Sequence record: NZ_CP067021.1
Length of the DNA: 64,000 bases
DNA from: a plasmid
Strand: one strand, 5' to 3'
The notes beneath the pieces are model-generated. The model did no database searches, had not been told where the DNA came from, and saw nothing but the letters and a program-made list of their open reading frames with translations. Positions 1,687 through 20,344 of this stretch are shown here, in pieces. How positions within the stretch are numbered: position 1 is the stretch's first letter; each line of letters starts with the position of its first letter. The translations under genes were made by a program, and so were the position numbers.

Positions 1687-1700
1687 CTCAAAACTTGGAG
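1687..1700 (+). promoter_or_regulatory. Operon-leader element B (CTCAAAACTTGGAG) with GGAG SD 8 nt before ATG 1709
   Basis: Shared motif before at least 10 first genes of operons. Confidence 0.6.
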
Positions 1701-1708
1701 ATTTTAAA

Positions 1709-2857
1709 ATGTCACATTTCACAGTTGCAGTAGTTACCACCCCTGATGGTGATGTTGTAGATGCCCTAGAACCATTTTACGAATTTGAATGCTCAGGCAT
1801 TAAAAACAAATATTGCATTTCAGAATCATCATTGGACGAAATTAAAGACCAATACGAATCGACAGAAATCACTTTGATGAAAAACTCAAAGCCTATCTTA
1901 GATGATGGTGAAGAGCGCTATGCGTTTCTTGACGACCCTCGTTTCGTGCGTGATGCAACAGACTTAGAGCTTGATGCCATCAAAAACAACAAAGGTGATA
2001 TTTTTGCTGACTTCCCGAACGGCGGTGAGCATTTATCAGTGGTACAGGTCAAAAACGATGATGGTACGTACTCAAGTCGCATTCGTGATTTAGGCATGTT
2101 CATTCAATGGCATCAAAAAGATGTGCCATGTACTGAAGTGTTTGAGCTTCAACAGTTCATTAATTGGTATAACGAAGAAGTTACGCCAACTGTTTTGACA
2201 GGTGAAAAACCTGATGAAAGTTGGACAGAATGGATAGAGCTTGATGCTGATGGCAAAGTGGTCGATTACTTCACCACCACCAACCCGAATCCGAAATACG
2301 ATTGGTATGAAATCGGAGGACGTTGGAAAAACATGCTGTTGCGTCTTGATGGACGTAATGTGAATAGTTGCCCGATTGGTGAGCTTGATTTTGAATCCGA
2401 AATCAACCGTTTAAAAACCGAAGCCAACCGTGTTTATGACTACTTTGAAAAATGTATCGGTGATGCTTCACGTACTTGGCGTCCATTAAGTGAATTGTGG
2501 GCTGATGAATCAATCGAAACAGTCAATGAAAAGCGTGATATTTATCATAACCAAGATTCAATCAAAACAATTAGAGCCAATGACACTGATAAGTTTTATG
2601 GCTTGAGTGGCTATGATTTTGATGAATTTTTGGTGAGCCGTGAAGAATTCGTAGCTAAAAAATCAGCAAACCCATTCGGTACATACTGTTTCTTAGATGC
2701 GACCAGTGGTGATGAAATAGGCGACTGGACAGGTTCAGAGTGTGGCATGTTTGGACAGGATATTCGCAAGGAAGAAGATTGGGAAAACAAAAACCAAGCC
2801 TTGCTCAAGAGCTTTCCAAGCGACTATATAATCACGATTGTTGATTGCCATATCTAA
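1709..2857 (+). CDS. hypothetical protein (382 aa), acidic
   Basis: ORF preceded by motif B/SD; terminator hairpin downstream. Confidence 0.6.
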   Translation: MSHFTVAVVTTPDGDVVDALEPFYEFECSGIKNKYCISESSLDEIKDQYESTEITLMKNSKPILDDGEERYAFLDDPRFVRDATDLELDAIKNNKGDIFADFPNGGEHLSVVQVKNDDGTYSSRIRDLGMFIQWHQKDVPCTEVFELQQFINWYNEEVTPTVLTGEKPDESWTEWIELDADGKVVDYFTTTNPNPKYDWYEIGGRWKNMLLRLDGRNVNSCPIGELDFESEINRLKTEANRVYDYFEKCIGDASRTWRPLSELWADESIETVNEKRDIYHNQDSIKTIRANDTDKFYGLSGYDFDEFLVSREEFVAKKSANPFGTYCFLDATSGDEIGDWTGSECGMFGQDIRKEEDWENKNQALLKSFPSDYIITIVDCHI

Positions 2858-2867
2858 AACCCAAACA

Positions 2868-2900
2868 GGGATAAGCGTAAAACCTTATCCCTTTTCTTTT
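2868..2900 (+). terminator. Rho-independent terminator (GGGATAAG-loop-CTTATCCC plus TTTTCTTTT)
   Basis: 8-bp stem followed by a T-run directly after the stop of 1709..2857. Confidence 0.6.
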
Positions 2901-2920
2901 GGGCATTTTTTAAAGCGCAT

Positions 2921-2959
2921 TCGATGTTTTTTAATTGATTAAAAAGGTTTTGAATTTTT
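2921..2959. promoter_or_regulatory. Copy 2 of element A (CGATGTTTTTTAATTGATTAAAAAGGTTTTGAATT)
   Basis: Conserved 35-bp element. Confidence 0.65.
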
Positions 2960-2999
2960 AAATTTTAAGAAAAATTAAACAGCTATTGCGCTTTGTATA

Positions 3000-3194
3000 A
3001 TGAATATAGATTTAATCACTATCCTTAAAGGTTTTAATATGTGGAATACATTAGTTTTAATTCGTAAAACTGCAACGTCAAAAGAAATAAAAGACAAAGC
3101 TGATATGTATTTAAGCCAGTTAAATACTGCAACCATTTCAGCATCTCTTAAAGCTGAAATACTCTCTTTTATCGAATCTGTTTTAAACGATTAA
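3000..3194 (+). CDS. small hypothetical protein (64 aa)
   Basis: ORF between element A and motif B; low support. Confidence 0.3.
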   Translation: MNIDLITILKGFNMWNTLVLIRKTATSKEIKDKADMYLSQLNTATISASLKAEILSFIESVLND

Positions 3195-3214
3195 TCAACT
3201 TAGGCTCAACGCCT

Positions 3215-3225
3215 ACAACTTGGAG
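3215..3225 (+). promoter_or_regulatory. Leader element B variant (ACAACTTGGAG)
   Basis: GGAG 7 nt before ATG 3233. Confidence 0.5.
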
Positions 3226-3232
3226 AAACCCC

Positions 3233-3658
3233 ATGAATTACTACAACACATTCACCATTCCATGCAATTTTAAAGTACAGCACATTGAAGATGGTCAATT
3301 TGTCGTGTTTTTTGCTGATGGCACTCAGTTAAGTTACCAGATTGAAAACACCAGCAAGGTTAAATGGATTGAACCTGAAGCATTCAGCTTAGAGCAAGTA
3401 CTCCTAAGCTCAAAAGAGCCAATCAATGCCGATGATATTGACATCATTAAGTATGCTTCATACCGCTTAATTGCTGACACGCCATTGATTGATGATGATG
3501 GTAGCAATCCTGAGCCTGATTGCCTTTACTGCAAAAAATCTAGTGACACTCTTAACAGCCTCATACTTCAAGTCACTGAAGCACATACCCTCCCATGTTG
3601 GCTACTGACATCAAACGGCGTTCATATCCTAGATATTAATGAATTGACTGAAGTTTAA
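3233..3658 (+). CDS. hypothetical protein (141 aa)
   Basis: ORF with motif B/SD; hairpin 3668-3693 downstream. Confidence 0.6.
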   Translation: MNYYNTFTIPCNFKVQHIEDGQFVVFFADGTQLSYQIENTSKVKWIEPEAFSLEQVLLSSKEPINADDIDIIKYASYRLIADTPLIDDDGSNPEPDCLYCKKSSDTLNSLILQVTEAHTLPCWLLTSNGVHILDINELTEV

Positions 3659-3710
3659 GAACAACAACTAGTGAAGCATGTCTATTGCTTCACTTCTTGG
3701 CAGTTGAAAA

Positions 3711-3758
3711 CCGCATTCGATGTTTTTTTAGTTGATTAAAAAAAGGTTTAGAAATTTG
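3711..3758. promoter_or_regulatory. Copy 3 of element A (variant TTTTAGTTGATTAAAAAAAGGTTTAGAAATT)
   Basis: Conserved element, shares the GCATTCGATG prefix with copy 2. Confidence 0.6.
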
Positions 3759-3964
3759 GTTGTGGCCAGCGCTAGATCTGGCGCACCAGGATCAATGCTT
3801 ATTTTTATGGTTCCTTAATTGCTTCCATCATTTTAATAGCATCCTCATTACCATTTTTAGCTGCTATCTGTTAAAAGTCGCAGCAAGGATCAGTAAAACA
3901 ATAATAAAAATAAATAATTTTAAAAAAGTTTTTGGTTTAGGTTCTATCTTAAAATAAACATATT

Positions 3965-3989
3965 GAAGCAGAAAGCTTAAAACTTGGAG
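3965..3989 (+). promoter_or_regulatory. Leader element B (GAAGCAGAAAGCTTAAAACTTGGAG), identical 25-mer also at 17881-17905
   Basis: Exact 25-nt repeat; GGAG 5 nt before ATG 3995. Confidence 0.65.
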
Positions 3990-3994
3990 TTGAA

Positions 3995-4951
3995 ATGGTT
4001 ACTATTAATGAATTACTTAGCAAAAACCTTGATCGCAAATATGGTCCAATTGAAGCGCATGAAGTTATAGAACTTGTTCGTGTAACTCGTGCGCCAGAAT
4101 CAATAAATAACCCTTCAATGCCATCAGTTAGAATTTCTACTGCAGATCTGCACCATATGGTTGAACAAGCTAAAAAGTTCAATTTGTGGGAAGAATGGTC
4201 CACCAAGGTTTTAGCAACTGAGTTGCCATACAACCCTTATCTTAAGCCAGTGTTTACAGGTCATAGTTTCCCACGTTCTAGCATGTCTACTGACAACTAC
4301 GAAGCATTAGTACGCTCTACGTTAGTGCCGGTGCTACTACCTGAAGATAAAAAGTCTTTTATCAACCTGAATGACAAAGTTATGTCATTTAACAACCTCA
4401 TGTTTGATATGCCCGATGCGATGGTGAACCATCTCATGACTGGTAAAAAACTTTGGCTATATGCAAAAAATGGGCAAGTGGTCTGGTATACCCGTGCTGA
4501 GTATGAGGCGCAAACCAAGTGGAACCAGGCTGAACAGGATGCTAAGAAAAAAATTACTGCATTGTTTGAATTATTCAATGCGCTGCAACAAGCTAAACCG
4601 ATCTTTGATGCTATCGATCAGAAGAAAAACTTCAGTGCTTTACCGTTCAAATGGTTCACTGGTGTAAAAATTGTAATGTCAGGCTTGTCAGCTGGATCAT
4701 GGGGCGATGGTGAAAAATCAAATACAGTGACTCACTTGGTTTTTGATGAAGACTACTCAGGATCTAAATTGGTTCGTGAGAAAAACCAGTACTTGTGCTC
4801 AGCTGGAGGCTTATTCCCTGCAGATGAAGCAAAGAAAGAATTCAAAATGAAAGTAGGTGAAGTTACCGTGGACACGGTACCGCACCTTGTTACATGTAAA
4901 GTGTGCCTAAAACGTATTTTTACGCAACTTGCATTAACTCAATCTAATTAA
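3995..4951 (+). CDS. hypothetical protein (318 aa)
   Basis: ORF with leader B; first gene of a 3-gene + strand operon. Confidence 0.6.
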   Translation: MVTINELLSKNLDRKYGPIEAHEVIELVRVTRAPESINNPSMPSVRISTADLHHMVEQAKKFNLWEEWSTKVLATELPYNPYLKPVFTGHSFPRSSMSTDNYEALVRSTLVPVLLPEDKKSFINLNDKVMSFNNLMFDMPDAMVNHLMTGKKLWLYAKNGQVVWYTRAEYEAQTKWNQAEQDAKKKITALFELFNALQQAKPIFDAIDQKKNFSALPFKWFTGVKIVMSGLSAGSWGDGEKSNTVTHLVFDEDYSGSKLVREKNQYLCSAGGLFPADEAKKEFKMKVGEVTVDTVPHLVTCKVCLKRIFTQLALTQSN

Positions 4952-4964
4952 TCAAATTTATAGG

Positions 4965-5435
4965 GTGTTCATCATGAATAACAAAACAATTGCCAAAAAA
5001 ATGATTAACCAAGTTAAATCGGTTATCACTGACCCTCAAGCAAAAAGCTTGTTGGCTGCTTATCACGTAGAGACGTCATTTACCCACTTCTACGAAACAC
5101 ACAGCCACATTTACTTGGTTGGTAAAGACATTACTGCAGTCATGGCCAAACATTTTCCATACTTCACGTTTAAGACTCGTGATAACAAGAAAGCCCGTCA
5201 CGGTATTGGCGATGGCTCAATGTCTGATTGCTTAAACAAGCTGCGCCGTGTGTATCGCTTAGAAATCAAAAAACCGATTAGCGAGAAGTTTATCGCTGAA
5301 GCTGGTGCACCGACTTTCACAAAAAGCCAATCTGTAAGTCCTGTTGCTTATTTGATTGATGAAGTTGTGCAACAAGAAACAGCGCCGATCGCACGATCTG
5401 ACGTTCAAAACAGTTTCCAGGATCTTTTCAATTGA
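4965..5435 (+). CDS. hypothetical protein (156 aa)
   Basis: ORF 13 nt after the previous stop, SD-like GGGTG. Confidence 0.5.
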   Translation: MFIMNNKTIAKKMINQVKSVITDPQAKSLLAAYHVETSFTHFYETHSHIYLVGKDITAVMAKHFPYFTFKTRDNKKARHGIGDGSMSDCLNKLRRVYRLEIKKPISEKFIAEAGAPTFTKSQSVSPVAYLIDEVVQQETAPIARSDVQNSFQDLFN

Positions 5436-5447
5436 TTTGAGGCTTAT

Positions 5448-5735
5448 ATGAATATGCATACGACTCAAAAGAGTGAGAGAGACAAAATGACAAAACGCTG
5501 TTCTGTTGATGTGAAGTCACCCTGGTTCTTCATAGAGGACCAAATCCCAAACAAAGATGGCACGGCGTTTATTGTGTGGGATGAATTCTTAGACCATGAA
5601 ATTAAACCTATCCGCTGGAGCGATAAGATCCGTGACTATGCTTCAGGTGAAGTCGAATGGAGTGGAAGCTTCTTATTTTGGCGATATGATGATGGTACAC
5701 CAGCTGAATCACCAAGAAGCTATCAGCAATCTTAA
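5448..5735 (+). CDS. hypothetical protein (95 aa)
   Basis: ORF closely following the previous gene. Confidence 0.4.
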   Translation: MNMHTTQKSERDKMTKRCSVDVKSPWFFIEDQIPNKDGTAFIVWDEFLDHEIKPIRWSDKIRDYASGEVEWSGSFLFWRYDDGTPAESPRSYQQS

Positions 5736-5869
5736 TTTCTTATATTTCCGAGGGTGTAGCCAATTGATTTTGAGATTTGATCAATCTCTTTAAGGCAAAG
5801 GTTTGATTCCTTGAATGCCAGTTCGAGTCTGACCATCCCCGTCATTGCCAACAAATTCCCTCAAATGAA

Positions 5870-7159
5870 TCAATTGAAGACAATCATACCAGCCTCACTA
5901 AAATAGTTACGGCTTTGACGTTCTGACTTAGGTTCCCAATCTCTATTTTTCAGATTACATGATCCAGCAGCAATTTTAGCCTTGCCAAACTTACTTTGAA
6001 TGTTTTGAAACGCCGTCATTAACGCTTGCTCTTTTTCAAGCTGCTCTACGTCAGTTAGTAGGCCGATCGTGCGATGTTCTTCTTTTATCAATTCACACAA
6101 CATCACGCCACATTTCTTAAACTCTATCCCCTCTTTGTACAATTTATCAATCAGTGATGTGGCAGCTTTAACCAGTTGCATCAAATTGTTTGTAGGTTGG
6201 GTAAACGTGTATGTTAACGACTTGCTGTAATACGGTTTTGACTGGTCAAATGGGTTGGATTGCAAGAAAACAATCAGAGATCCGCATAGCTGGTGTTCAG
6301 CAACAAGCCGATTGAATGCATTATGGGTATATTTGCTGACGGCTTCTTGAAGAATTGAGAGCTCAGTAATTTTCTGGCCGAAAGATTTGCTCGAGACAAT
6401 CTGTTGTTTCGCCTTAGGTGAACTTTCAAATTCAAAGCATGGCTGGCCAAGCAATTCTAAAATCGTACTTTGCATATTCACATTGAAGAGTTCACGCATT
6501 CGATTCGGGTTGGATGTTGCAAGATCCAGCACACTTAAAATCCCCATGTCATTAAGCTTTTTAGCGTACTTTCGCCCTACACCCCATATTTCATCAACTG
6601 GCATGCTTTGATAGTAGCTTTCGACATCTACCAGGCTCATTGTCACTAAATTACAGATTCCATTTAATTCTGGATTCTTTTTGGCAAGGTTGTTGGCCAT
6701 TTTACTTTCAGTCAGTGTTCTACCAACACCCACGCACGTTGTTAAGCCAATAAACTTATATACTTGATGCCGAATCTCCCGTGCCATTTCAGTAGCATCA
6801 AAGTTTTTAGTAAATTGAGTAAATTCTATAAAGCCTTCATCAATGCTGTAAATGCTGTAACAGCTTGGATCTACAAAACCAGATAATATTCCATGAAAAC
6901 GGCGTGACATTTCGCCATATAGCGCAAAATTGCTCGATAGCACATGAACGTTATGTTTATTGATGATGTCTTGGACCTTAAAGAGTGGCGCACCCATCGG
7001 GATTTTTAAGAGTTTAGCTTCAGCGCTTCTCGCGATGATTGTTCCATCATTAGAGCTTAAGACAACGCATGGTTTACCCTTTAACTTAGGGTTCCAAAAT
7101 GCTTCCATCGAACAATATGCCGAATTTATATCAACATGAATAAATACCCGGTTTGTCAT
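5870..7159 (-). CDS. umuC: Y-family error-prone DNA polymerase V catalytic subunit (UmuC-like)
   Basis: N-terminal IHVDINSAYCSME matches the Y-family polymerase palm motif; 429 aa; overlaps the umuD stop (operon). Confidence 0.85.
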   Translation of the reverse strand: MTNRVFIHVDINSAYCSMEAFWNPKLKGKPCVVLSSNDGTIIARSAEAKLLKIPMGAPLFKVQDIINKHNVHVLSSNFALYGEMSRRFHGILSGFVDPSCYSIYSIDEGFIEFTQFTKNFDATEMAREIRHQVYKFIGLTTCVGVGRTLTESKMANNLAKKNPELNGICNLVTMSLVDVESYYQSMPVDEIWGVGRKYAKKLNDMGILSVLDLATSNPNRMRELFNVNMQSTILELLGQPCFEFESSPKAKQQIVSSKSFGQKITELSILQEAVSKYTHNAFNRLVAEHQLCGSLIVFLQSNPFDQSKPYYSKSLTYTFTQPTNNLMQLVKAATSLIDKLYKEGIEFKKCGVMLCELIKEEHRTIGLLTDVEQLEKEQALMTAFQNIQSKFGKAKIAAGSCNLKNRDWEPKSERQSRNYFSEAGMIVFN

Positions 7160-7674
7160 TTTCGTGCGTCTTTAATGATGTAAGTCACTACGCCCCACAC
7201 AATCAATTCCTGTTCAGGTTTTAGAAAAATATGTGAGTGCTCTTGGTTTTCTGCTTTAAGCCAAACTGGAGGGATAGATTTTGCATCTGGACCAAAAATT
7301 TCATTAATTTCACCAGCTGACATTTGCTTGGTGATCATCAACCGCTTAACGGTAAAGTCTGTTTCTAGCTGAGCAACAATAATATCTAGATGCTTGGCGT
7401 CTAAGCTTCTATCGATTATGAGCTTATCGTTAATATCTATACCGGCATTTAGCATGGAACGAGAGCCTACTTTACCAATAAACGTAGAGTACTCATTGGT
7501 GATCAGCATTTCGTTGAGATCGACCGACTTTTCAATAAAATCTTGTGCTGGTGATGCAAATCCAGCCGACAGCAGCTCTAACGCCACTGGAATGCGTTTA
7601 GGTGCACCAGGAGCAAGAGCTTCAATTTCAACTAAATCACCAGCTTTAAGCGGTATTTCTGATTTTTCTGACAT
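7156..7674 (-). CDS. umuD: UmuD-like S24 LexA/UmuD family peptidase
   Basis: 172 aa; LLSAGF cleavage-site-like motif and S24 C-terminal Ser/Lys region; 4-nt overlap with umuC. Confidence 0.8.
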   Translation of the reverse strand: MSEKSEIPLKAGDLVEIEALAPGAPKRIPVALELLSAGFASPAQDFIEKSVDLNEMLITNEYSTFIGKVGSRSMLNAGIDINDKLIIDRSLDAKHLDIIVAQLETDFTVKRLMITKQMSAGEINEIFGPDAKSIPPVWLKAENQEHSHIFLKPEQELIVWGVVTYIIKDARK

Positions 7675-7729
7675 CTCAAGACCGGTGAAAGAATATATAT
7701 ACCAATTCTATTTCTTGCATGTCTGATGA

Positions 7730-7774
7730 TCAATCAAAAAATAAAAACCAGTAGGCATGCCACTTGCCTACTGG
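7730..7774 (-). terminator. Rho-independent terminator on the minus strand (CCAGTAGGCA-7nt-TGCCTACTGG then T-run on minus)
   Basis: Perfect 10-bp stem; T-rich tract on the minus strand. Confidence 0.5.
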
Positions 7775-7939
7775 TCGTATTGGAAGTTCAAAATTGACTT
7801 AGATCTTAGAAAAACTCAAGTGATATGTTGGACATCTATATTCACTTGAATACACAACCAAGATTGAAGTGCTGGAAGAAGCATTTTTAGCATTAGGACT
7901 TTGGATCTTCAGGTTATTTAATTAACTTCTACCCTTTTG

Positions 7940-7965
7940 ACCTAGCCTAGCTAGGTTTTTTTTTG
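7940..7965 (+). terminator. Rho-independent terminator (ACCTAGC-CTA-GCTAGGT plus T9)
   Basis: Stem-loop followed by a 9-T run; no annotated + gene upstream. Confidence 0.5.
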
Positions 7966-8004
7966 AAAAAATTTTAAAGCCCAAACAGTCTTTAAAATGA
8001 ATAC

Positions 8005-8031
8005 ATCAAGCTCATTGCTTAAAACCTGGAG
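8005..8031 (+). promoter_or_regulatory. Leader element B (ATCAAGCTCATTGCTTAAAACCTGGAG)
   Basis: Same 27-mer as 15485-15511 and rc of 11065-11091; GGAG 8 nt before ATG 8040. Confidence 0.65.
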
Positions 8032-8039
8032 TATTCAAG

Positions 8040-8495
8040 ATGTATCTACGCTACACGATGTTTAAAACAGATGGAGAAAAAGTCCTTAGTTCGCACGGCA
8101 TTGGGTTAAGCAACTGCTTTATTTACCATGCAGCGGAAATACTCTACAAAGAGGTTCAAAATTCTGCATCTTTTGACCGTTACATTGAGAGATTATCAAA
8201 GTGTAATACGATCAAATACAACCACGAACGACACGGCGACAAAGCACGTATTGTCTATTTTGCACCTGAAGATCTAACGCGTGTCTCTTACAGTACAACA
8301 TATAGCGAACGGGTTGAAAATGCCAATATCGATAGCTTTGACTTGATTACCCTGTACGCTGAGTACAAAACTATTTTTAGTTGTATCTATTTTGATATAT
8401 CAACGAATACCTGGTCTGTACGTACATACACTGATGTATTAACATCAATGGGCATGTTAAAGCCACCAGTAGCACAGTTAGCATTTGCAATATAA
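8040..8495 (+). CDS. hypothetical protein (151 aa)
   Basis: ORF with leader B and a strong terminator after it. Confidence 0.55.
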   Translation: MYLRYTMFKTDGEKVLSSHGIGLSNCFIYHAAEILYKEVQNSASFDRYIERLSKCNTIKYNHERHGDKARIVYFAPEDLTRVSYSTTYSERVENANIDSFDLITLYAEYKTIFSCIYFDISTNTWSVRTYTDVLTSMGMLKPPVAQLAFAI

Positions 8496-8520
8496 GAGCC
8501 CCTGAAAAGTCTTATACCCA

Positions 8521-8554
8521 CCTAGCATTGACCAATCAATGCTAGGTTTTTTTT
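8521..8554 (+). terminator. Rho-independent terminator (CCTAGCATTGA-ccaa-TCAATGCTAGG plus T8)
   Basis: 11-bp perfect stem plus T-run. Confidence 0.7.
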
Positions 8555-11057: not shown

Positions 11058-11064
11058 GACCGAC

Positions 11065-11091
11065 TCCAAGTTTTAAGCAATGAGCTTGATT
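11065..11091 (-). promoter_or_regulatory. Leader element B (rc: ATCAAGCTCATTGCTTAAAACTTGGAG) for the MTase operon
   Basis: Same 27-mer as two other sites. Confidence 0.65.
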
Positions 11092-11244
11092 ACTTAATTG
11101 TAGAGTCAGTTTTTCTAATAAAACTTTTTTAAAAAAAATAATATGAAATAGAAAAGGCTGAAATGATCAGCCTTTTATTATTAGCGAAAATAAGATTTAT
11201 ATTTTATTAATACCCTCACATAACTCTAATGCTAGTGGTTACAT

Positions 11245-12325: not shown

Positions 12326-12418
12326 TCTGCCCATTACTGGTTGATGCAACCAGGAATAACGAACAGCAAAGTAGTATTCTTTATTAATGGCGCATGAATT
12401 AGTCATAGTAAATACCTA

Positions 12419-12676
12419 CTAGTCTTTAGTTAGCCAAAGGAAGAAACACAGTCCGAAGATGAAGAACCCCAATGTCAAAGGAACAGAAAGAAAAAAATGT
12501 TCGACTACACCAAAGCTAAAAATGGTACCAATATTGGTTGAAATAAAAAATCCCATTACACTAAGTAGTATTGGAAAAATAGCCATGAAAAAAATGTATA
12601 GCATTACTTTCAAAACCTTGTGATTTTGGAAGAATCTACGTTTAAAAAAATCTTTGCTTGGACCACTTAAAATCAT
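12419..12676 (-). CDS. small membrane protein (85 aa, 2 TM)
   Basis: Hydrophobic ORF 9 nt after the upstream gene. Confidence 0.4.
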   Translation of the reverse strand: MILSGPSKDFFKRRFFQNHKVLKVMLYIFFMAIFPILLSVMGFFISTNIGTIFSFGVVEHFFLSVPLTLGFFIFGLCFFLWLTKD

Positions 12677-12684
12677 GCCTTCAC

Positions 12685-13461: not shown

Positions 13462-13467
13462 AAGTGG

Positions 13468-13662
13468 CTAACTCCCAAAAAAAAACTCTATTGCCATTTC
13501 GCTTTCTATACAGGTCAGTGTAACTTCACCTGATTGCATGTAATTCAGTAGGTCATTACGCTTTTTTATCAGGTCCTTTTGTGAAGTAGACACATACAGA
13601 TTAGTTGCACAATAGCTTTGAATCTGAGTGATCAACTTCATCTTTAAGCGTAGCAAGCTCAT
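13468..13662 (-). CDS. small hypothetical protein (64 aa)
   Basis: ORF 7 nt upstream of the 258-aa gene. Confidence 0.3.
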   Translation of the reverse strand: MSLLRLKMKLITQIQSYCATNLYVSTSQKDLIKKRNDLLNYMQSGEVTLTCIESEMAIEFFFGS

Positions 13663-13721
13663 TGATAACCGCAGCGAGTTCTTTTTCTTGAATCAACATT
13701 TGAATACATCCTACGATTGAA

Positions 13722-13739
13722 TAGACGAAAGGCCTGTAA
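13722..13739 (-). terminator. Hairpin AGGCCTG-taac-CAGGCCT downstream of 13757..14122
   Basis: 7-bp stem; weak U-tract. Confidence 0.35.
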
Positions 13740-13756
13740 CCAGGCCTGGAAAATGA

Positions 13757-14122
13757 TTACTTTGTATAAATCACATTCTTATATTGTGTTTGGAGCTTGT
13801 AGAACTCACGGTGAGATAGCTCTTTAGGGTTTTGAGCCATGATCGTATAAAACTTACGAATCTCTTGTTCCTTTTTTTCCGATGGTTCACTGATCTCAGC
13901 AATACGCACGGTTTCATACCAGCCGACTACTTGGCCATAGTCTTTAGATGCGATTTGCGCCGTAGAATAAAATACATAAGAAATAATGATGGTTGCAACA
14001 CCAGTAATCGCTAGCAACGTAAATGTCGTGCGACCCCATGCAAGAAGCTTTGCTTTGTATTCATCAAGAGCAAGCAACCAAGTACCAACCATCGCAAGAG
14101 CTAAAATATCACCTAAAATCAT
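13757..14122 (-). CDS. membrane protein (121 aa, 2 N-terminal TM helices)
   Basis: ORF; hydrophobic N-terminus. Confidence 0.5.
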   Translation of the reverse strand: MILGDILALAMVGTWLLALDEYKAKLLAWGRTTFTLLAITGVATIIISYVFYSTAQIASKDYGQVVGWYETVRIAEISEPSEKKEQEIRKFYTIMAQNPKELSHREFYKLQTQYKNVIYTK

Positions 14123-14269
14123 TTTGGTTTTCCTTAAATAAATTCACCTTTCGCTTTTAATTATAGAAAATAAAACCCTTAAAACTTTTTTTCTAAAAAC
14201 AATTATTCTTTTCTTAAAATATTTAAAAGGACTTATAAAACCACTTTAAGCTTTCTTAAAAACGCATAC

Positions 14270-14292
14270 GCTGATTTTAATTGATTAAAATA
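14270..14292. promoter_or_regulatory. Copy 4 of element A (GATTTTAATTGATTAAAA)
   Basis: Conserved element. Confidence 0.55.
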
Positions 14293-14378
14293 AAATTCAC
14301 TTTTTAATTTTTAGAGAAAAGTTAAAACCTTTTAAGGATTGATACTATGTATCTATTCCAATAGATAGGCGATCCCCT

Positions 14379-14723
14379 ATGCACTCATTACCAGTTGACG
14401 CTAAATCAGTAAAACATTTTGCATCGAATCCTTTAAGTGATTGGGCAATAGGACTTGTCAAAGCTGATGCGGTGAATAACCACCTTAGTTTTGATGCTAA
14501 CTGCACCCTTCAGTTAAGCACGGTTTTTGATTTTATTGCGATTGCGGATACCGAAGCAGAAGACTTTGAATCGCTGTTTTTAAGAGAGTTTGGTGAGGAT
14601 TTCACACCATTAAGTCACCTTGAATATGAATCAGTGAATAGCTTGGCTGAAATGATTACATCGCAATATGAGACGGCGATCGAAACCGTTAGACACATCA
14701 TTATTGAACGTGAATTGAACTAA
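14379..14723 (+). CDS. small highly acidic hypothetical protein (114 aa)
   Basis: ORF; D/E-rich composition; start uncertain (weak SD). Confidence 0.45.
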   Translation: MHSLPVDAKSVKHFASNPLSDWAIGLVKADAVNNHLSFDANCTLQLSTVFDFIAIADTEAEDFESLFLREFGEDFTPLSHLEYESVNSLAEMITSQYETAIETVRHIIIERELN

Positions 14724-14735
14724 GGAACTGGACGC

Positions 14736-15485
14736 ATGAATAAGCTTGTACTTGCCATTGAGTCAGGGCGTATTACTGACGGAGAAGTTTTATTTTCACA
14801 GTTGAATCAGCTTAAATCTGGTCAAATACCCGATATGGTAAGTAGACAGCAATTTGCTGAATTGTCTGAAATGGTCAATGCCTACCAGGATGTATGGATG
14901 GATGAACCAGTAGCTTTTTTTCAGCCTATCCAAGACTTTTTAAAAGCGATTGATTTAGAAGTCTACAATGATTTCAGCACTGATTTTGACTTGTGGTACT
15001 ACTACGAAGCACCAGAGCAAAAATACGAAGCAACAGTAGCAACTAAACCATTATTCACGGCACCAAAACTCACCGCTACTGGTGAAGTCTACAACTGTCT
15101 ATTGACCGTTGAACAAGCTCAAAACTATCTAAATAAGGCAATTCAATTTGCTCGTGACCATAACATGCCAGTACCAAAGTCATGTAATGAACCGTTTATC
15201 GTCACAGATGGTTTAGAGGTTGGATCTGAGTTGATCTACTCAGGCGTAGGCACAGATAAAGCCGTATATACGGCAATACAGCTCATACAAGAGGCAATAC
15301 TCAATAATGCTGGTAAAGAGCATGTGTTATGCCTAAGACGTTTTTCAAACAGCTTAAAACCATTGGTAAAGTCTGCATTAGGAAAGGAAGTTTACTTAAC
15401 CAATTGCACACTAGGGAAGCTGGCAGATCTTCTTGATCGCCCTGAAACATGGTCAGAGTTCACAGAACACTTTAAACAAAACTAA
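14736..15485 (+). CDS. hypothetical protein (249 aa)
   Basis: ORF with AAGGAA SD. Confidence 0.55.
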   Translation: MNKLVLAIESGRITDGEVLFSQLNQLKSGQIPDMVSRQQFAELSEMVNAYQDVWMDEPVAFFQPIQDFLKAIDLEVYNDFSTDFDLWYYYEAPEQKYEATVATKPLFTAPKLTATGEVYNCLLTVEQAQNYLNKAIQFARDHNMPVPKSCNEPFIVTDGLEVGSELIYSGVGTDKAVYTAIQLIQEAILNNAGKEHVLCLRRFSNSLKPLVKSALGKEVYLTNCTLGKLADLLDRPETWSEFTEHFKQN

Positions 15486-15511
15486 TCAAGCTCATGGCTT
15501 AAAACTTGGAG
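15485..15511 (+). promoter_or_regulatory. Leader element B (ATCAAGCTCATGGCTTAAAACTTGGAG)
   Basis: Conserved 27-mer; GGAG 8 nt before ATG 15520. Confidence 0.65.
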
Positions 15512-15519
15512 ATACGACA

Positions 15520-16050
15520 ATGCAACTACACAATTTGAATCCTGGTACCGATACAGTTCGCCACCTTTTGAAAACCGAGAGTGCTACATATAGTGGCGTT
15601 CCATCATGTGTGATCAATATCATTGGGCAAGCAAAAAAGACTGTTCCCAACTTTATTGAAGTGATTTTTGTTGAGGTTGTATTGTTTCATCCCAAAGATG
15701 GCGAAGTATACGAAATTGAAGTGAGTGCACCGTTACAGGTTGAGCCTGTTGCCGAAGCTCACCGTATTGGAATGTTCAATCCAAGTGAAGCTAGAGCACT
15801 TATTGAGGGTGAAGTGCTGGATGTAGCAATCAATCTACAACGCAAGGCAATTGAGGAAATGATTGAATATGATTTGCTCTCAGAAGACGGTCTGGAGAAG
15901 TTCAACGCATGGAATGGGATCTCACCTGAAAGCCTATTGCTTGAAAGCTTTGAATGCGTGACCGAATACAACGGACTTCACAGCACACACTTTATGGCCA
16001 GCAAGGTGAAGCAAAAAGTAACCAATTACCTTAAAAGAGATTTGTTCTAA
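15520..16050 (+). CDS. hypothetical protein (176 aa); the track ORF 15433..16050 is trimmed to the ATG after leader B
   Basis: ATG in frame 8 nt after GGAG. Confidence 0.55.
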   Translation: MQLHNLNPGTDTVRHLLKTESATYSGVPSCVINIIGQAKKTVPNFIEVIFVEVVLFHPKDGEVYEIEVSAPLQVEPVAEAHRIGMFNPSEARALIEGEVLDVAINLQRKAIEEMIEYDLLSEDGLEKFNAWNGISPESLLLESFECVTEYNGLHSTHFMASKVKQKVTNYLKRDLF

Positions 16051-16060
16051 TCAGATCCAT

Positions 16061-16090
16061 AAAAAAGAGAGGTTTGCCCTCTCTTTTTTA
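16061..16090. terminator. Bidirectional rho-independent terminator (AAAAAAGAGAGG-tttgc-CCTCTCTTTTTT)
   Basis: 12-bp stem flanked by A-run and T-run. Confidence 0.7.
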
Positions 16091-16113
16091 TGGCCATAGA
16101 TTTATGGCCGTAA

Positions 16114-16152
16114 ACGGTGTTTTTTAATTGATTAAAAAGGTTTTGGATTCTT
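16114..16152. promoter_or_regulatory. Copy 5 of element A (GGTGTTTTTTAATTGATTAAAAAGGTTTTGGATT)
   Basis: Conserved element; overlaps the stop codon of the minus small ORF. Confidence 0.6.
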
Positions 16153-16254
16153 CAACCCATTAGGTTTTTTAACCAAGCTTAATGCAATAGCCAAAACAAC
16201 AACACTGGCTAACATAGCCAGTGGTATTAAAAGGAATTTTAAAGGTTGAGCCAT
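16132..16254 (-). CDS. 40-aa hydrophobic peptide (MAQPLKFLLIPLAMLASVVVLAIALSLVKKPNGLKNPKPF)
   Basis: Hand-translated minus-strand ORF with its own leader-B variant (CTTAAAACTTGGTG) upstream; below the ORF-track cutoff. Confidence 0.35.
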   Translation of the reverse strand: MAQPLKFLLIPLAMLASVVVLAIALSLVKKPNGLKNPKPF

Positions 16255-16400
16255 ATTCCACTACACCAAGTTTTAAGCGTTGTGCTTATTTAATTTAATT
16301 ATAGTGAAAAAGTTAGCTTATAAATTTTAAAAAAAAATTAATGACCATGGTTTTTATTAAAATATCTATATAGACAATTAAGCTAATTAGGTGGGCAATT

Positions 16401-17204
16401 ATGAATATGTTGGTAAATATAAAAAGAGAAGTGCAAGCATCTGAATTAGACTTTATTGAAGTCGAAAAGCTAATTTTGCAATGCGAAAAAGCAAAATCGT
16501 CAATAAAGGTTATTTATGAAAGCATCAAAGATATTGAACTTGATGCTTACCAGATTGTGAGTGCAATCACCCGAAAATCATATTCATCATCATTCAATAC
16601 TGAAGAATCTGCTTTAAAACAAATATCGTCATGCTTCTGGAGGAAGTTAACTGAGATCATCAATCTTAGAAACTTTATATCTGAAAAAGAATATGATGCG
16701 TTGTCAGATAAAATTGCTCGTCATGAAATTGAAGATTTCACGATGGATAACGTGAATGTATTTTTAGAATCTATCTGGTCTACGCGCCACATGGCATATG
16801 CTCGTAAAGTTGATTCATTGTTTTGCCAATTATCAAGCAAATACAAAACCAATCTTGGTGCTGGTATTAACCCGTGCGTGATCATTCATCACAATAGCTA
16901 CCATTCTTATTGCAGACGAGATAATTTAGTGGAAGAAGTACGCTTTATAGCAAGGCAGTTATTTGGCAAGCCTTTAGACCACACTAGATTAGATAAACTC
17001 AGGTTAGATCGTGGTATCTGGCATAGCATTGATGATAATTTATTACGCATTAAGATCTACGAAAACGGTAACTGTCATATCTTGTTTAATCAATGCGTAG
17101 TTGATCGCATTAACCAGGTATTAAACCTGTTATATCCGAATCAAATTGGCATAGATCCAAATGTAAAACACAAACGCCGTGCGTATGATGAACCCATTTT
17201 ATAA
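16401..17204 (+). CDS. hypothetical protein (267 aa)
   Basis: ORF with AGGTGG SD. Confidence 0.55.
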   Translation: MNMLVNIKREVQASELDFIEVEKLILQCEKAKSSIKVIYESIKDIELDAYQIVSAITRKSYSSSFNTEESALKQISSCFWRKLTEIINLRNFISEKEYDALSDKIARHEIEDFTMDNVNVFLESIWSTRHMAYARKVDSLFCQLSSKYKTNLGAGINPCVIIHHNSYHSYCRRDNLVEEVRFIARQLFGKPLDHTRLDKLRLDRGIWHSIDDNLLRIKIYENGNCHILFNQCVVDRINQVLNLLYPNQIGIDPNVKHKRRAYDEPIL

Positions 17205-17398
17205 AGCTCATTAAAAAACCATCAATTGTTATTGTGGTTTTTTTTAGATATATACGGTACTAATTTTGCGATCGTGCCACTGGTGAACATACACTGACCA
17301 TATCACTATGGATACTTGGGATAAATCATATCCCTTAAAGGCAGATTTAAATTTAGACTCCATTTTTCGGAGCTGCATTCTCTTATCACGAGATGGCT

Positions 17399-17692
17399 CT
17401 AATTCAATATCCCCAATGAATTGAGAATTGCAATAAGATCTTGTTCAGGTGTATCAGCAAGCACCGTCACGTTATAGCCACCGCTAAACTGGTGTAATTC
17501 AGCACAGTACTCAACATCAGACGCCGTGAGTACCAATTCAACATCAAAATATTGAATCACTTTAAGCACCTGGTACTTTGCTTTAAAGAATCCGTTGTTT
17601 TCAGCTAACTTCATCGCTTCAGCAATGGTGATGTTTTCAAGCACAAGACGGTCTTGAGCTGGTTCATCTTCATATGTTTTAAAACTTAACAA
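17399..17692 (-). CDS. hypothetical protein (97 aa)
   Basis: ORF. Confidence 0.4.
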   Translation of the reverse strand: MLSFKTYEDEPAQDRLVLENITIAEAMKLAENNGFFKAKYQVLKVIQYFDVELVLTASDVEYCAELHQFSGGYNVTVLADTPEQDLIAILNSLGILN

Positions 17693-17786
17693 TTTAATTA
17701 AACTTAATTAATTAACTAATTGCTCGTTAAATTATTCTTAATGCATTACGGCGATACGGCTAATAGAAAAATCATATTAGTACGCA

Positions 17787-17830
17787 AGCGATGTTTTTTA
17801 ATTGATTAAAAAAAGATTGAAAATCTTATT
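17787..17830. promoter_or_regulatory. Copy 6 of element A (GCGATGTTTTTTAATTGATTAAAAAAAGATTGAAAATC)
   Basis: Conserved element. Confidence 0.6.
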
Positions 17831-17880
17831 TTTCGAGAAAGGTTTGCCAGGTTGTGTTTTCCCATAAAATGAAACTATCA

Positions 17881-17905
17881 AAAGCAGAAAGCTTAAAACT
17901 TGGAG
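17881..17905 (+). promoter_or_regulatory. Leader element B (AAAGCAGAAAGCTTAAAACTTGGAG)
   Basis: Identical 25-mer to 3965-3989. Confidence 0.65.
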
Positions 17906-17913
17906 TGAACAGC

Positions 17914-18321
17914 ATGTCAAATTTAAACGCTCAATCAGTACAGTTACAAGGCACTTTATACATCGGTTTCCCTAAAACTTTTAGCGGTGCTCACATGGAA
18001 ACATTGTTTGATGAAATCTCAGATTACATCGACAACAACTGTGATTTAACCCTTGCGGATCTTCAAGCGGATAGTGACTATGCTCAACTTCAATTTCAAC
18101 AGCACATGCCGACATTGGCTGATAAAACAAATTTCTTCTTCATGGACGTTGAAATCTATGTTGCAACATTAAAAGAAAACTTTGGTCATACATCAGTACT
18201 CGACCAAGTTACCTCAGTAAATATCTTTGGCAAAAACCTTGAAGACATTTGCACGTTAATGGCTCAAAACGGCTACGCATACGACCGTATAGAAGATTGT
18301 TGGTCACGCGAACTTTCTTAA
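17914..18321 (+). CDS. hypothetical protein (135 aa; track ORF trimmed to ATG 17914)
   Basis: ATG 8 nt after GGAG. Confidence 0.55.
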   Translation: MSNLNAQSVQLQGTLYIGFPKTFSGAHMETLFDEISDYIDNNCDLTLADLQADSDYAQLQFQQHMPTLADKTNFFFMDVEIYVATLKENFGHTSVLDQVTSVNIFGKNLEDICTLMAQNGYAYDRIEDCWSRELS

Positions 18322-18386
18322 TTCAATTCACCCATACGCACGGATAACGTGCGTATGCCACTGAATCACATTTGAGGATATAAACC

Positions 18387-18857
18387 ATGCAAAACCTAAT
18401 TACAGCGCATTGCGAGCTAACCATCAAACATGATGAAAAACAGCAAAAAAATGTCGGGCCTGTTGTTGTGACGTTTGGGGCGATCTTTACTGCTGAGTCG
18501 GTGAATGAACTGTTTTGCGCTATATGCCAAGACGGAATCAGATTTAAAGCAATCTATAACCCCGACAATATGTATTTTTTACGCCATGAGCTAAGCCCAA
18601 TTGCTGATTTGTCAGTTAAGACAGACCAAGACGGCAACATTATTGTCAGTGTGATTGCATCCACTAGCCCATATTTTGAGATCAAAGTACTAAAAAATGG
18701 TTTTACCAACTCAGACACCTTAAATAGTTCTGCGATTCGCACGTTGGTTCGCAACCATCAAAGCCCATTCCAAGAGCAAATTTCTGACTACTTTGAAACA
18801 GACCAAATTTTTAAAACCATGCAAGCAATTTTTGCACACACGTATTTAAGCCGATAA
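18387..18857 (+). CDS. hypothetical protein (156 aa)
   Basis: ORF with GAGGA SD. Confidence 0.55.
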   Translation: MQNLITAHCELTIKHDEKQQKNVGPVVVTFGAIFTAESVNELFCAICQDGIRFKAIYNPDNMYFLRHELSPIADLSVKTDQDGNIIVSVIASTSPYFEIKVLKNGFTNSDTLNSSAIRTLVRNHQSPFQEQISDYFETDQIFKTMQAIFAHTYLSR

Positions 18858-18868
18858 GGAACTTCACC

Positions 18869-19819
18869 ATGACGACCGCTACTGCTACCGCTGAAAAGAC
18901 CGTGTTCAAACGTGAAACGTTGGAGCTGAAGAACATCCATGTTTACACCCAAAACGACCGCATTAACCAAAAAAGTCGCGTTGGCGACCGTGCATACGAC
19001 AATGGATTAGTGAAGGACATCCTGTTCAGCCCTATGCTTTGGGCTACCCCTGAATTTTCATCTAGCTATGTTACTCAGATTCAAATTAAAGGCACACGCA
19101 TTTATGATTCACTTTGCAGTTATACTGGCGTTCGCACCTATTTTTATAAGTTGTCAGACAGTGAGTTTGGGTGCATGTATCAAAAACGTCCGTACCCACA
19201 AAACGACTTTCTCTTAATTTTTGCAAACTTAACGCAAATGTTTAACGATGCAGTTTGTTACTTTGGAAACAACAGTAATAAAAACGTTTTTAAAGGTCTA
19301 AATTTTGACATCGAAAGTGGTGTTTCACGGTTCAATTTACAGCAACGTTTATTAGAGTTTTATAAGAAGTCTAAACGCCAATTGACCATCAGTGAAACAA
19401 CAAGAGGAATGCTTGGTGACTCGAATCTTCGCTATAACATCTTTGTTCGCAACCAACCAAAATTGGACAAACACGGCAAGCCGTTAAAGTGCGCCAAAAA
19501 ACTCATTAAGCTGTACAAAGAGCGTGGCACAGTTGCGATCTATGGCGGTGACTGCATTTCACCACTCAAGCTCGTTAAACACCAACAAATCAAGCTAGAG
19601 AGCGAAAATGGCAAGTTTTCATATACGACTGACTTCATCACGTTGTACTCAGTAGAACAAGACATGTACACCTTATATATTCCCTATTCAGCACTTAATG
19701 AAAGCTACGGAACAACTAATAAATTTTATGGTTTGCATCTCACCCAAGAAGAAGCAGAAAAAACCATCCCGAAATTATTAGAACGTACTCAAAAGTATTT
19801 AAACCATAAAAAAGGTTAA
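18869..19819 (+). CDS. hypothetical protein (316 aa)
   Basis: ORF with AAGGAA SD; hairpin GTTGATCA-n6-TGATCAAC after the stop. Confidence 0.55.
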   Translation: MTTATATAEKTVFKRETLELKNIHVYTQNDRINQKSRVGDRAYDNGLVKDILFSPMLWATPEFSSSYVTQIQIKGTRIYDSLCSYTGVRTYFYKLSDSEFGCMYQKRPYPQNDFLLIFANLTQMFNDAVCYFGNNSNKNVFKGLNFDIESGVSRFNLQQRLLEFYKKSKRQLTISETTRGMLGDSNLRYNIFVRNQPKLDKHGKPLKCAKKLIKLYKERGTVAIYGGDCISPLKLVKHQQIKLESENGKFSYTTDFITLYSVEQDMYTLYIPYSALNESYGTTNKFYGLHLTQEEAEKTIPKLLERTQKYLNHKKG

Positions 19820-19864
19820 TACCCTTGCGTTGATCAGCTAATTGATCAACTGCTGGCTTTATAA

Positions 19865-19900
19865 ACGCAAACGATGTTTTTTTAGTTGATTAAAATAATC
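19865..19900. promoter_or_regulatory. Copy 7 of element A (ACGATGTTTTTTTAGTTGATTAAAATAATCC)
   Basis: Conserved element. Confidence 0.55.
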
Positions 19901-20329
19901 CAAAACTTAATTTTGATAATTCAGCACCCATAATTCTACTAATGCATTTCCATCAAGCCTTAATTCAAACCATATTCAATTAACAATGAATTAACACCAC
20001 TACGGCGTTATTTCTTAAATGTGGTATATGGCTTTACCCACCCCCTACTCGTCTATGGCTAATTGTTCCAGTGTCAGTCAAAAAATGAAATATAATTCAT
20101 TCTCAAAAATGAGAATCTGTTCACAAATGGGAACGCGAAGCAGCCTTAATTTTAAAAATATCAGTTCATCTAGACTAAATTTGAGTAAGTCTGATTAATA
20201 TTGAATAATAAACCTAAGTTTTTCGCCGTATGTTTTAATCTTCAAGGGTTTAACTTTAATGAAGTTTTTTTTAAATAAACTAATTTAGTGGATTTTGACC
20301 GTTATAATGGTTTTATCTCGAGGCATATT

Positions 20330-20344
20330 GCCTTAAACTTGGAG
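20330..20344 (+). promoter_or_regulatory. Leader element B (GCCTTAAACTTGGAG)
   Basis: GGAG 7 nt before ATG 20352. Confidence 0.55.

Follow-up and report, generated by a model that had tools for sequence, protein, structure and literature searches.

Short RNA signals located at or next to the Shine-Dalgarno (SD) sequence are familiar from bacteriophages, in the form of the MS2 and PP7 coat-protein hairpins, the T4 RegA sites, and the targets of T4 RegB, which cuts GGAG SDs. Small hairpins are also bound by Cas6e enzymes, which cut them at the 3′ base. In PMC3997798 (references 93-95 and 109 therein), 5′-terminal stem-loops are described as stabilizing the ompA and papA mRNAs of Escherichia coli against 5′-end-dependent decay, and the aprE leader of Bacillus subtilis as stabilizing through a 5′ stem-loop combined with ribosome binding at a strong ribosome-binding site (RBS). 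Here, we describe an element of 24 nucleotides (nt) that combines a small hairpin, a linker, and the SD GGAG and that recurs in front of unrelated genes in a stretch of 64,000 nt of plasmid DNA (NZ_CP067021.1). This whole stretch is referred to below as the window.

Like the phage translational operators, the plasmid element is an SD-adjacent signal of a class of genes on a mobile element, and its choice of GGAG recalls T4 early genes; unlike in those operators, its SD lies outside the hairpin. It shares with Cas6/Csy4 sites a hairpin with a conserved single-stranded tail, many copies per replicon, and a Cas6e-like gene nearby. The plasmid copies, however, lie 0.7 to 14 kb apart, each before a gene, with no array and no spacers, and their stem is an A/U-rich helix of 4 to 5 bp (versus 6 to 7 G/C-rich bp) fused to an SD and a start codon. 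As in the ompA, papA, and aprE leaders (PMC3997798), a small hairpin is predicted a few nucleotides from the mRNA 5′ end and is followed by an accessible RBS. Those leaders belong to single genes, have longer and more stable stems, and share no sequence, whereas the plasmid carries one 24-nt module before about 18 unrelated genes, also within operons. CUP/ArdK (IncN, pKM101) and Reg576 (p576) are similar in that repeated sequences head establishment-type units and define a plasmid-specific regulon (PMC6289460, PMC6294495). Those sites are operators in double-stranded DNA that lie within or beside the promoter and have a known repressor, whereas the plasmid element is predicted to be transcribed, contains a covarying helix whose arms vary in spacing, directly adjoins the SD, and is retained where there is no promoter. 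Mobile promoters also place near-identical upstream regions before nonhomologous genes in one replicon (PMC3488235), but here a 24-nt leader segment is conserved rather than a whole promoter, and it has undergone compensatory evolution. Although upstream regulon elements and stabilizing leaders are known, this covarying module of hairpin, linker, and SD, its repeated occurrence, and the RNA-level action that is likely for it have not been described previously. A literature string search for AACTTGGAG, the core of the element, returned unrelated primers only, and two papers on the pXBB1-9-type plasmid family made no mention of the motif or promoter.

Anatomy, covariation, and distribution of the element

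The window is part of an approximately 330-kb Acinetobacter megaplasmid of the pXBB1-9/pAJ_351-2 family, and the closest matches to its first 20 kb showed 98 to 99% identity over 95%. The complete plasmid pAJ_351-2 (332,451 bp; "pAJ" in coordinates) served as the full-replicon reference for a census of the element, and the RefSeq annotation of NZ_CP078019.1, a near-identical plasmid (98.5%), served as the reference for coding sequences (CDSs). With up to two mismatches allowed, GCTTAAAACTTGGAG occurred nine times in the window, always between 1.7 and 20.3 kb (1686+, 3211+, 3975+, 8017+, 11064-, 15497+, 16264-, 17891+, and 20330+). Dinucleotide shuffles of the window gave an expectation of 0.19 copies, and none of 100 shuffles reached nine. 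The core AACTTGGAG was found exactly nine times in the window, eight of them at GCTTAAAACTTGGAG sites. All window copies are sense oriented, with 5 to 9 nt between GGAG and the ATG or GTG. The full anatomy reads -10 hexamer, N9-12, RRGC-loop (3 to 6 nt)-GCYY, a 7-nt G-free linker (AAAACUU), GGAG, N5-9, and AUG.

An earlier note on this DNA had placed a conserved leader and RBS element before at least 10 operons and before the first gene of nearly every transcription unit in the first 20 kb. The motif is real, but the window holds 9 copies rather than 10 (related plasmids have a tenth, at pAJ 219109, immediately 5′ of window base 1), and only about 9 of 16 units carry it. The copies at 3211 and 15497 are not unit heads; they directly follow an upstream open reading frame (ORF), without a -10 hexamer. 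Three near-identical 27-mers were confirmed, with 8005-8031 and 15485-15511 each one base off the reverse complement of 11064-11090. Two 25-mers given as identical (3965 and 17881) agree over 24 bases and differ in the first (G versus A). The start codons proposed from the motif (15520, 17914, and GTG 11057) open CDSs of 531, 408, and 1,074 nt, which equal RefSeq CDSs of NZ_CP078019.1. The earlier note was also right that ordinary SDs are used elsewhere, since AGGA, GAGG, or AAGG-type SDs, but never CTTGGAG, precede the motif-less genes of the same 24 kb, and that conservation reaches well past the SD and marks a common 5′ leader.

What the earlier note missed is that the 5′ half of the element is a small hairpin, RRGC-loop-GCYY, which can be extended to 5 to 6 bp in some copies. 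We aligned the stems of 32 distinct copies from all sequences collected. The outer pair was A-U in 25 copies, G-C in 5, and another combination in 2; the second pair was A-U in 28 and G-C in 4; and the inner two pairs (G-C and C-G) were invariant. Double changes from A-U to G-C affected two of the four pairs in 9 of the 32 copies, and no one-sided change occurred in that alignment. Paired cells made up 98.4% of the alignment, compared with at most 48% when the 3′ partner was slid one to three columns, and the observed covariation score was reached by none of 500 shuffles. At one orthologous site, a G·U intermediate was present, with GGGC/GCUC on pAJ_351-2 and GAGC/GCUC on an A. sichuanensis plasmid. 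The stem changes were all transitions, the purine staying on the 5′ arm, and a path from A-U through G·U to G-C would be typical of an RNA helix.

The loops are free in both sequence and length (3 to 6 nt) and differ even between orthologous copies (aatt versus aaatt; taatt versus caaagc). The linker is G-free with the consensus AAAACUU and measures 7 nt in 17 of 18 copies. The predicted minimum free energy structure included the hairpin in 11 of 17 leaders, with the linker mostly unpaired. Where downstream genes have been deleted, the SD has decayed from GGAG to GGTG (window 16264, minus strand) or GATG (contig L061). Other potential features were discarded on inspection. A CAAG/CUUG alternative pairing that would sequester the SD is not conserved in variant-stem copies, the linker does not pair with the 16S 3′ end past GGAG, and a resemblance to integration host factor sites (WATCAANNNNTTR) fits some copies only, with the wrong spacing.

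The element is phased with respect to promoters. In 12 of 17 pAJ_351-2 copies, a TAnnnT hexamer (TAAAAT, TACAAT, or TATAAT) ends 24 to 27 nt before the AAC core, that is, 9 to 12 nt before the stem; in one further copy of the 17, it ends 30 nt before the core. With a predicted start 6 to 8 nt past the -10 and 1 to 5 nt ahead of the stem, the hairpin would occupy mRNA positions from about +2 to +5. A canonical -35 is absent at the motif promoters, and a generic promoter scan detected none of them. A T-run followed by AAAAAAGTTTT lies 21 nt 5′ of the -10 at window positions 3925-3945, 7968-7985, and 11118-11135 (minus strand) and at other promoters of the same block. The AAAAAAGTTTT element, possibly UP-like or a site for a regulator, is common to block promoters with and without the hairpin leader (71 on the plasmid versus 32 expected). 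Four copies, including those at 3211 and 15497 in the window, are intraoperon copies that lack a -10, with the hairpin, linker, and SD all intact. The 15497-type copy is kept, with altered loops, in orthologues with 81 to 90% amino acid identity (L074 and L075, from other samples). Because these promoterless intraoperon copies are intact and conserved, the leader module is separable from the promoter.

Searches of the full 332-kb plasmid with a covariance model (R1) and with a structural descriptor independent of sequence identified 18 to 21 copies. The descriptor, which accepts any 4-bp stem followed by a G-free linker, GGAG, and a start codon, gave 18 matches compared with about 3 in shuffles, and all 18 have RRGC/GCYY stems and are located at 186 to 236 kb or in the 126-kb duplicate. 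The copies are confined to this one block of approximately 50 kb, save one in the duplicated segment at 126 kb, and none was found in the Dot/Icm transfer, partition, replication, resistance, or catabolic regions. About 18 genes, mostly unrelated ORFans, are led by the motif. Because only two paralogous pairs exist among the 18 proteins, the spread of the element is not explained by gene duplication, and its presence is independent of gene homology. Pfam and PHROGs searches of the motif-led proteins found nothing past one C5 methyltransferase, DUF6573, and one uncharacterized PHROG, and the protein families are tiny (6 to 7 clusters among 5.8 billion proteins).

A search of other plasmids, as suggested by the earlier note, detected a 31-mer in 69 Acinetobacter megaplasmids of PLSDB, at 3 to 8 places each. 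The rest of PLSDB contained just chance matches of 17 to 22 nt; two A. baumannii chromosomes there gave a 17-nt partial match only. Among 185,579 species genomes (GTDB), a 19-base pattern was multicopy in seven Acinetobacter assemblies, on short plasmid-like contigs, and formed five singletons in unrelated phyla, with about four expected by chance. A phage origin or phage relatives were rejected, as IMG/VR gave 30 matches, all single and at chance level. Metagenome matches corresponded to the same plasmid family, to an unrelated insertion sequence (IS) transposase gene, or to singletons with random stem combinations, and a metagenome scan with a degenerate RRGC/GCYY stem found no further stem variants within the true family. 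The approximately 35 environmental metagenome matches to AAGCGTAATGCTTAAAACTTGGAG (e.g., L146:3492-3515) represent the 3′ end of the IS transposase gene on the opposite strand; this recurrence is unrelated to the plasmid motif because a chance match was multiplied by IS copy number. The element is specific to the Acinetobacter megaplasmid family, and a generic host ribosome-binding context, which the earlier note had considered, is rejected.

Across divergent relatives in SRA assemblies, the hairpin, the 7-nt G-free linker, and GGAG are kept, while the loop, linker sequence, and flanks drift. A relative with proteins 57 to 60% identical (L072) has TATAAT-N10-AAGC-aaatt-GCTT-atcattt-GGAG at one orthologous site and TATAAT-N9-GAGC-caaagc-GCTC-aaaactt-GGAG at another. 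A second relative (L073, 59% identical) has a shortened stem, AGC/GCU, and the linker tcaatct.

Proposed function and competing explanations

We favor, with roughly even confidence, the explanation that the element is a cis-acting 5′-leader RNA module that sets the mRNA stability and translation of a coexpressed gene set. An RNA-level module is favored because the stem has evolved by compensatory changes with a G·U intermediate, the loop length is free, and the linker length is fixed, and also because of the strict sense orientation, the conserved promoterless sites, and the decay of GGAG upon gene loss. Host RNA polymerase would initiate at an AT-rich promoter that has a good -10 box but lacks a canonical -35. 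Within about 2 to 5 nt of the transcript start, the RNA would form a stem-loop of 4 to 5 bp (RRGC/GCYY) with a free loop of 3 to 6 nt, followed by exactly 7 G-free nt (AAAACUU consensus), the SD GGAG, and the start codon 5 to 9 nt on. The 5′-proximal hairpin would hinder 5′-end-dependent decay, and the unstructured A-rich linker would keep the SD open and at a set distance from the hairpin. The outcome would be a standard, strong, and coordinated stability and translation signal for about 18 unrelated genes, which are probably establishment or accessory genes. The conservation pattern suggests that one common factor, either a protein or the ribosome itself, reads all copies; such a common reader would be expected because the hairpin alone is weak and the inner pairs and linker are sequence specific.

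Several points weigh against this explanation. The hairpin position of +2 to +5 was derived solely from the -10 spacing. The stem is short, with a predicted hairpin energy of about -1 to -4 kcal/mol, and so weak a hairpin may fail to protect the 5′ end unless it is bound. Covariation involves two pair positions and perhaps 5 to 7 independent events, and the compensatory pair changes by which structured RNAs are recognized were found among paralogous copies, in an alignment (A3) fitted to the model. The restriction to purines on the 5′ arm and pyrimidines on the 3′ arm, together with the lack of variation at the inner pairs, might also be due to DNA being recognized sequence specifically. The comparable plasmid regulons that are known, CUP/ArdK and Reg576, act on DNA (PMC6289460, PMC6294495). 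In addition, the TGL-Y2 megaplasmid has an equally stereotyped promoter-leader without a hairpin, and because of these hairpin-less leaders, stereotypy alone is no proof of RNA function.

A role as a DNA operator of a plasmid repressor, which we consider unlikely, would assign the RRGC-N-GCYY inverted repeat, alone or with AAAACTTGGAG, to positions +1 to +25 of the promoters. The gene block would be transiently expressed after conjugative entry and then shut off, as with CUP/ArdK or Reg576, analogues that are known to act on DNA (PMC6289460, PMC6294495). Such an operator would be consistent with the set distance downstream of the -10 (9 to 12 nt in 12 of 17 copies), with the perfect 12-bp palindrome AAGCAATTGCTT in three copies, and with the invariant inner G-C/C-G pairs flanked by outer positions limited to purines in the 5′ arm and pyrimidines in the 3′ arm. 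It would also fit the second common DNA element (AAAAAAGTTTT) 21 nt 5′ of the -10 and the establishment-like block, which includes orphan methyltransferases, umuDC, and DUF4942 and has ArdC-like SprT and H-NS genes nearby. However, the half-site spacing is not fixed, and its range of 3 to 6 nt would rotate the half-sites of a dimeric binder. Changes in the arms are always complementary, which a protein reading half-sites does not require, and the one G·U-type intermediate can pair in RNA only. Furthermore, the four promoterless intraoperon copies are fully conserved, conservation runs into the SD at a set distance, and the orientation is always sense. Among about 30 proteins of the block and its vicinity, no helix-turn-helix or ribbon-helix-helix match was found with Pfam, NCBIfam, or PHROGs, although an ArdK homologue was not specifically searched for.

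The earlier note had left three alternatives: a promoter-proximal operator, an RNA-level control site for a translational repressor or small RNA (sRNA), and amplification of one expression module. These can be narrowed. An RNA-level element is favored over the DNA operator because of the hairpin, the promoterless intraoperon copies, and the strict sense orientation. The covarying hairpin supports control at the RNA level, but no antisense sRNA candidate with a complementary box was found; all good matches are sense and lie before genes. Amplification of one module is part of the history of the element but leaves the compensatory changes unexplained.

In its strict form, amplification would mean that a promoter-leader cassette ("mobile promoter") was propagated by recombination before acquired genes and has no function past that of a good promoter and RBS. 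The similarity among copies would then stem from recent common descent and the need for an SD, with no shared regulator or RNA structure. Unrelated prokaryotic genes often have highly similar upstream regions (PMC3488235), near-identity extends over 27 nt in some copies, two downstream gene pairs are paralogous, and other megaplasmids have their own stereotyped promoter-leaders. We nevertheless regard this possibility as quite unlikely, for the similarity ends sharply at the motif borders, with the stem and linker fixed and the linker constant in length, whereas the loop, the spacer from the -10 to the stem, and the spacer from the SD to the ATG are randomized. Compensatory double changes have occurred without single changes, the motif is kept at orthologous sites of relatives with 57 to 60% protein identity, and the SD decays only upon gene loss.

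It is also conceivable, but very doubtful, that the hairpin with its 3′ tail is a substrate or binding site of a solo Cas6e-like protein of the plasmid that acts independently of CRISPR (clustered regularly interspaced short palindromic repeat) systems. Cutting at the 3′ stem base, or stable binding, would give cistrons defined 5′ ends (AAAACUUGGAG...) and uniform expression, and the intraoperon copies would make sense as processing sites. The protein in question (WP_227504916.1) has 214 amino acids (aa) and a G-rich loop and is encoded at pAJ 239880-240524 (minus strand; L006:39880-40524), approximately 4 kb past the motif block, outside the window and about 20 kb beyond window base 1. It matches PF08798 with 27.4 bits (cutoff, 25), and a low-confidence structural model matches only Cse3/Cas6e structures in Foldseek (E value of about 5e-5). 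That model has a predicted local distance difference test score of <50 over the N-terminal 69 residues, and the catalytic residues are putative. Homologues of the protein are few (7 clusters among 5.8 billion proteins), and one relative with 33% identity belongs to a type IV-A cas operon. The plasmid has no further cas gene, and both it and the window lack a CRISPR array. The gene is core in 63 megaplasmids of the family, and in L072 the motif lies a few kilobases from the gene for a 57%-identical relative, but this co-occurrence is uninformative, as it is seen with the motif for any backbone gene. The motif has been kept in two plasmids whose copy of the gene is disrupted or truncated, known substrates have G+C-rich stems of 6 to 7 bp rather than 4 bp, and TGL-Y2, with a complete type IV system and a related Cas6, has hairpin-less leaders. 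A CRISPR array whose repeat could be compared with the motif was sought near the type IV relatives, and none was found on the contigs examined.

Phage N4 early promoters are small DNA hairpins, and by analogy the element might be a hairpin-type promoter from which a nonhost RNA polymerase starts near GGAG on incoming single-stranded or supercoiled DNA; the free-loop hairpin about 13 nt 5′ of GGAG and the giant "polyvalent" proteins of the plasmid, which may enter recipients, would agree with this, but it is extremely improbable given the good sigma-70-type -10 boxes at a set distance upstream, a GGAG-to-ATG spacing that equals SD spacing, and the absence of Pfam RNA polymerase domains from the giant ORFs tested.

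One 24-nt leader signal before about 18 unrelated ORFans would define a coexpressed gene set, probably with establishment or antidefense functions. If the RNA leader module does act at the RNA level, it would represent an uncommon plasmid-wide posttranscriptional regulon, as the plasmid regulons described so far use DNA operators. If instead the Cas6e-like protein were the reader, a domesticated, type IV-derived CRISPR RNA-processing enzyme would control about 20 plasmid genes, including intraoperon ones, and would provide a natural equivalent of the synthetic "RNA insulator" based on Csy4 in a posttranscriptional regulon on a globally spreading resistance plasmid. The compact module of hairpin, 7-nt spacer, and GGAG may also serve as a portable expression leader for Acinetobacter.

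Individual copies in the window

Copy 1 (1677..1700, plus strand; GAGC-acacg-GCTC-aaaactt-GGAG; 37.4 bits) carries the G-C variant at the outer pair and lies 8 nt before ATG 1709 of a 382-aa ORFan (PHROG 10079). A weak -10 candidate, TATTTT, is found at 1656-1661, 15 nt 5′ of the stem. Copy 2 (3202..3225, plus strand; 38.8 bits), an intraoperon copy without an upstream -10 hexamer, reads (T)AGGC-tcaac-GCCT(A)-caactt-GGAG, with the G-C variant at the second pair and 5 bp possible; ATG 3233 of a 141-aa ORF follows after 7 nt. Copy 3 (3966..3989, plus strand; AAGC-agaaa-GCTT-aaaactt-GGAG; 41.9 bits) is 5 nt from ATG 3995 of a 318-aa gene that heads a three-gene operon. Its -10 (TAAAAT, 3950-3955) is located 10 nt before the stem, and a AAAAAAGTTTT element is located 21 nt 5′ of this -10.

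Copy 4 (8008..8031, plus strand; AAGC-tcatt-GCTT-aaaacct-GGAG; 40 bits) precedes ATG 8040 (151 aa) by 8 nt and has its -10, TAAAAT, at 7993-7998, 9 nt before the stem. A terminator at 7939-7957 upstream closes the preceding unit. On the minus strand, copy 5 (11064..11087; AAGC-tcatt-GCTT-aaaactt-GGAG; 44.4 bits) is separated by 6 nt from GTG 11057, the start of a 357-aa C5 DNA methyltransferase-like protein that is followed by a second methyltransferase (9878-8553). A -10 (TACAAT, 11097-11102) lies 9 nt before this stem, with AAAAAAGTTTT 21 nt 5′ of the -10. Copy 6 (15488..15511, plus strand; AAGC-tcatg-GCTT-aaaactt-GGAG; 44.2 bits) is promoterless and intraoperon, beginning 3 nt past the stop codon of the ORF at 14736-15485, and has ATG 15520 (176 aa) 8 nt downstream.

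Copy 7 (16264..16287, minus strand; 40.4 bits) is degenerate, reading (T)AAGC-acaac-GCTT(A)-aaactt-GGTG, with a -10 (TATAAT) at 16298-16303 and ATG 16254 after 9 nt. It leads only a 40-codon hydrophobic ORF (MAQPLKFLLIPLAMLASVVVLAIALSLVKKPNGLKNPKPF; 16132-16254, minus strand). The same site on pAJ_351-2 has an intact GGAG, and the two genes that it leads there (136 and 176 aa) are absent from the window. Judging from this sequence comparison, the locus is a deletion or recombination breakpoint directly past the start codon.

Copy 8 (17882..17905, plus strand; AAGC-agaaa-GCTT-aaaactt-GGAG; 37.3 bits) stands 8 nt before ATG 17914 of a 135-aa gene at the head of a three-gene operon, and its -10 (TAAAAT, 17865-17870) ends 11 nt before the stem. 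The stem of copy 9 (20321..20344, plus strand; 33.7 bits), in the sequence (G)AGGC(A)-tat-(T)GCCT(T)-aaactt-GGAG, has the G-C variant at the second pair. This copy has a -10 (TATAAT, 20303-20308) 12 nt before the stem and is located 7 nt before ATG 20352 of a 119-aa gene, which is followed by a 125-aa gene. A weak model match at window 48058-48095 (minus strand) was rejected, as it has no proper stem, the ATG is 1 nt past GGAG, and pAJ has GGTG there.

Surrounding region and related megaplasmids

The 200- to 400-kb megaplasmids of this family spread NDM-1, OXA-58, tet(X3), and other resistance genes across many Acinetobacter species, and their backbone genes are mostly uncharacterized. The motif-bearing block also encodes the second methyltransferase, umuDC, and DUF4942, and adjoining genes encode an ArdC-like SprT protein with an SNF2 helicase, H-NS-like genes, Fic, TraX, and a lytic transglycosylase. 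From this gene content, the motif-bearing block looks like an establishment or antirestriction region. None of the large and giant plasmid ORFs tested had a Pfam relaxase or RNA polymerase domain.

The hairpin-less leader of the megaplasmid of Acinetobacter sp. TGL-Y2 (L079; NZ_CP015111.1 113931-154560, reverse complement) has the form TTACAT..ACTTAC..GCGGTATATGGTTATAAT-N5-8-TCA(G/A)CAA(C/T)GGAG-N6-8-ATG and stands before at least 15 small same-strand genes (e.g., genes 6286, 7419, 13817, 24957, 30848, 35770, and 38038), in an array that includes SSB and the type IV-A cas operon. Family-specific promoter-leader modules ending in GGAG seem to be recurrent on such plasmids, which supports the idea of a regulon. 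A third stereotyped leader, ...tataataaYtctATCGAAACTA, was observed on a Logan contig (L071).

Rfam 15 gave no match over the whole window at gathering thresholds. At E values of up to 1, the sole match within window positions 1 to 21 kb was an unrelated, subthreshold tRNA-like sequence at 5750-5841 (plus strand), which scored 25.7 bits against a gathering score of 29 and is not called by ARAGORN. This is the site where related plasmids carry an insertion of a miniature inverted-repeat transposable element, a class 1 integron, and NDM-1.

Two repeat arrays were also noted. On pAJ_351-2, at approximately 36.1 to 36.6 kb (L002), about seven copies of TGTAAACTTTCTTCCGTCCTAATGA occur at a spacing of approximately 84 bp in a long intergenic region; they resemble iterons and may mark a replication origin. 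At window positions 50515-51518, a 47-bp unit (TTTTTCATTATCAGACTGATAACAGCTTTAGATTCCTAAGCGTGGTT) is present in 21.5 tandem copies upstream of parA/parB, with a counterpart on pAJ_351-2 at approximately 91.3 kb, and this tandem repeat is probably the partition centromere.

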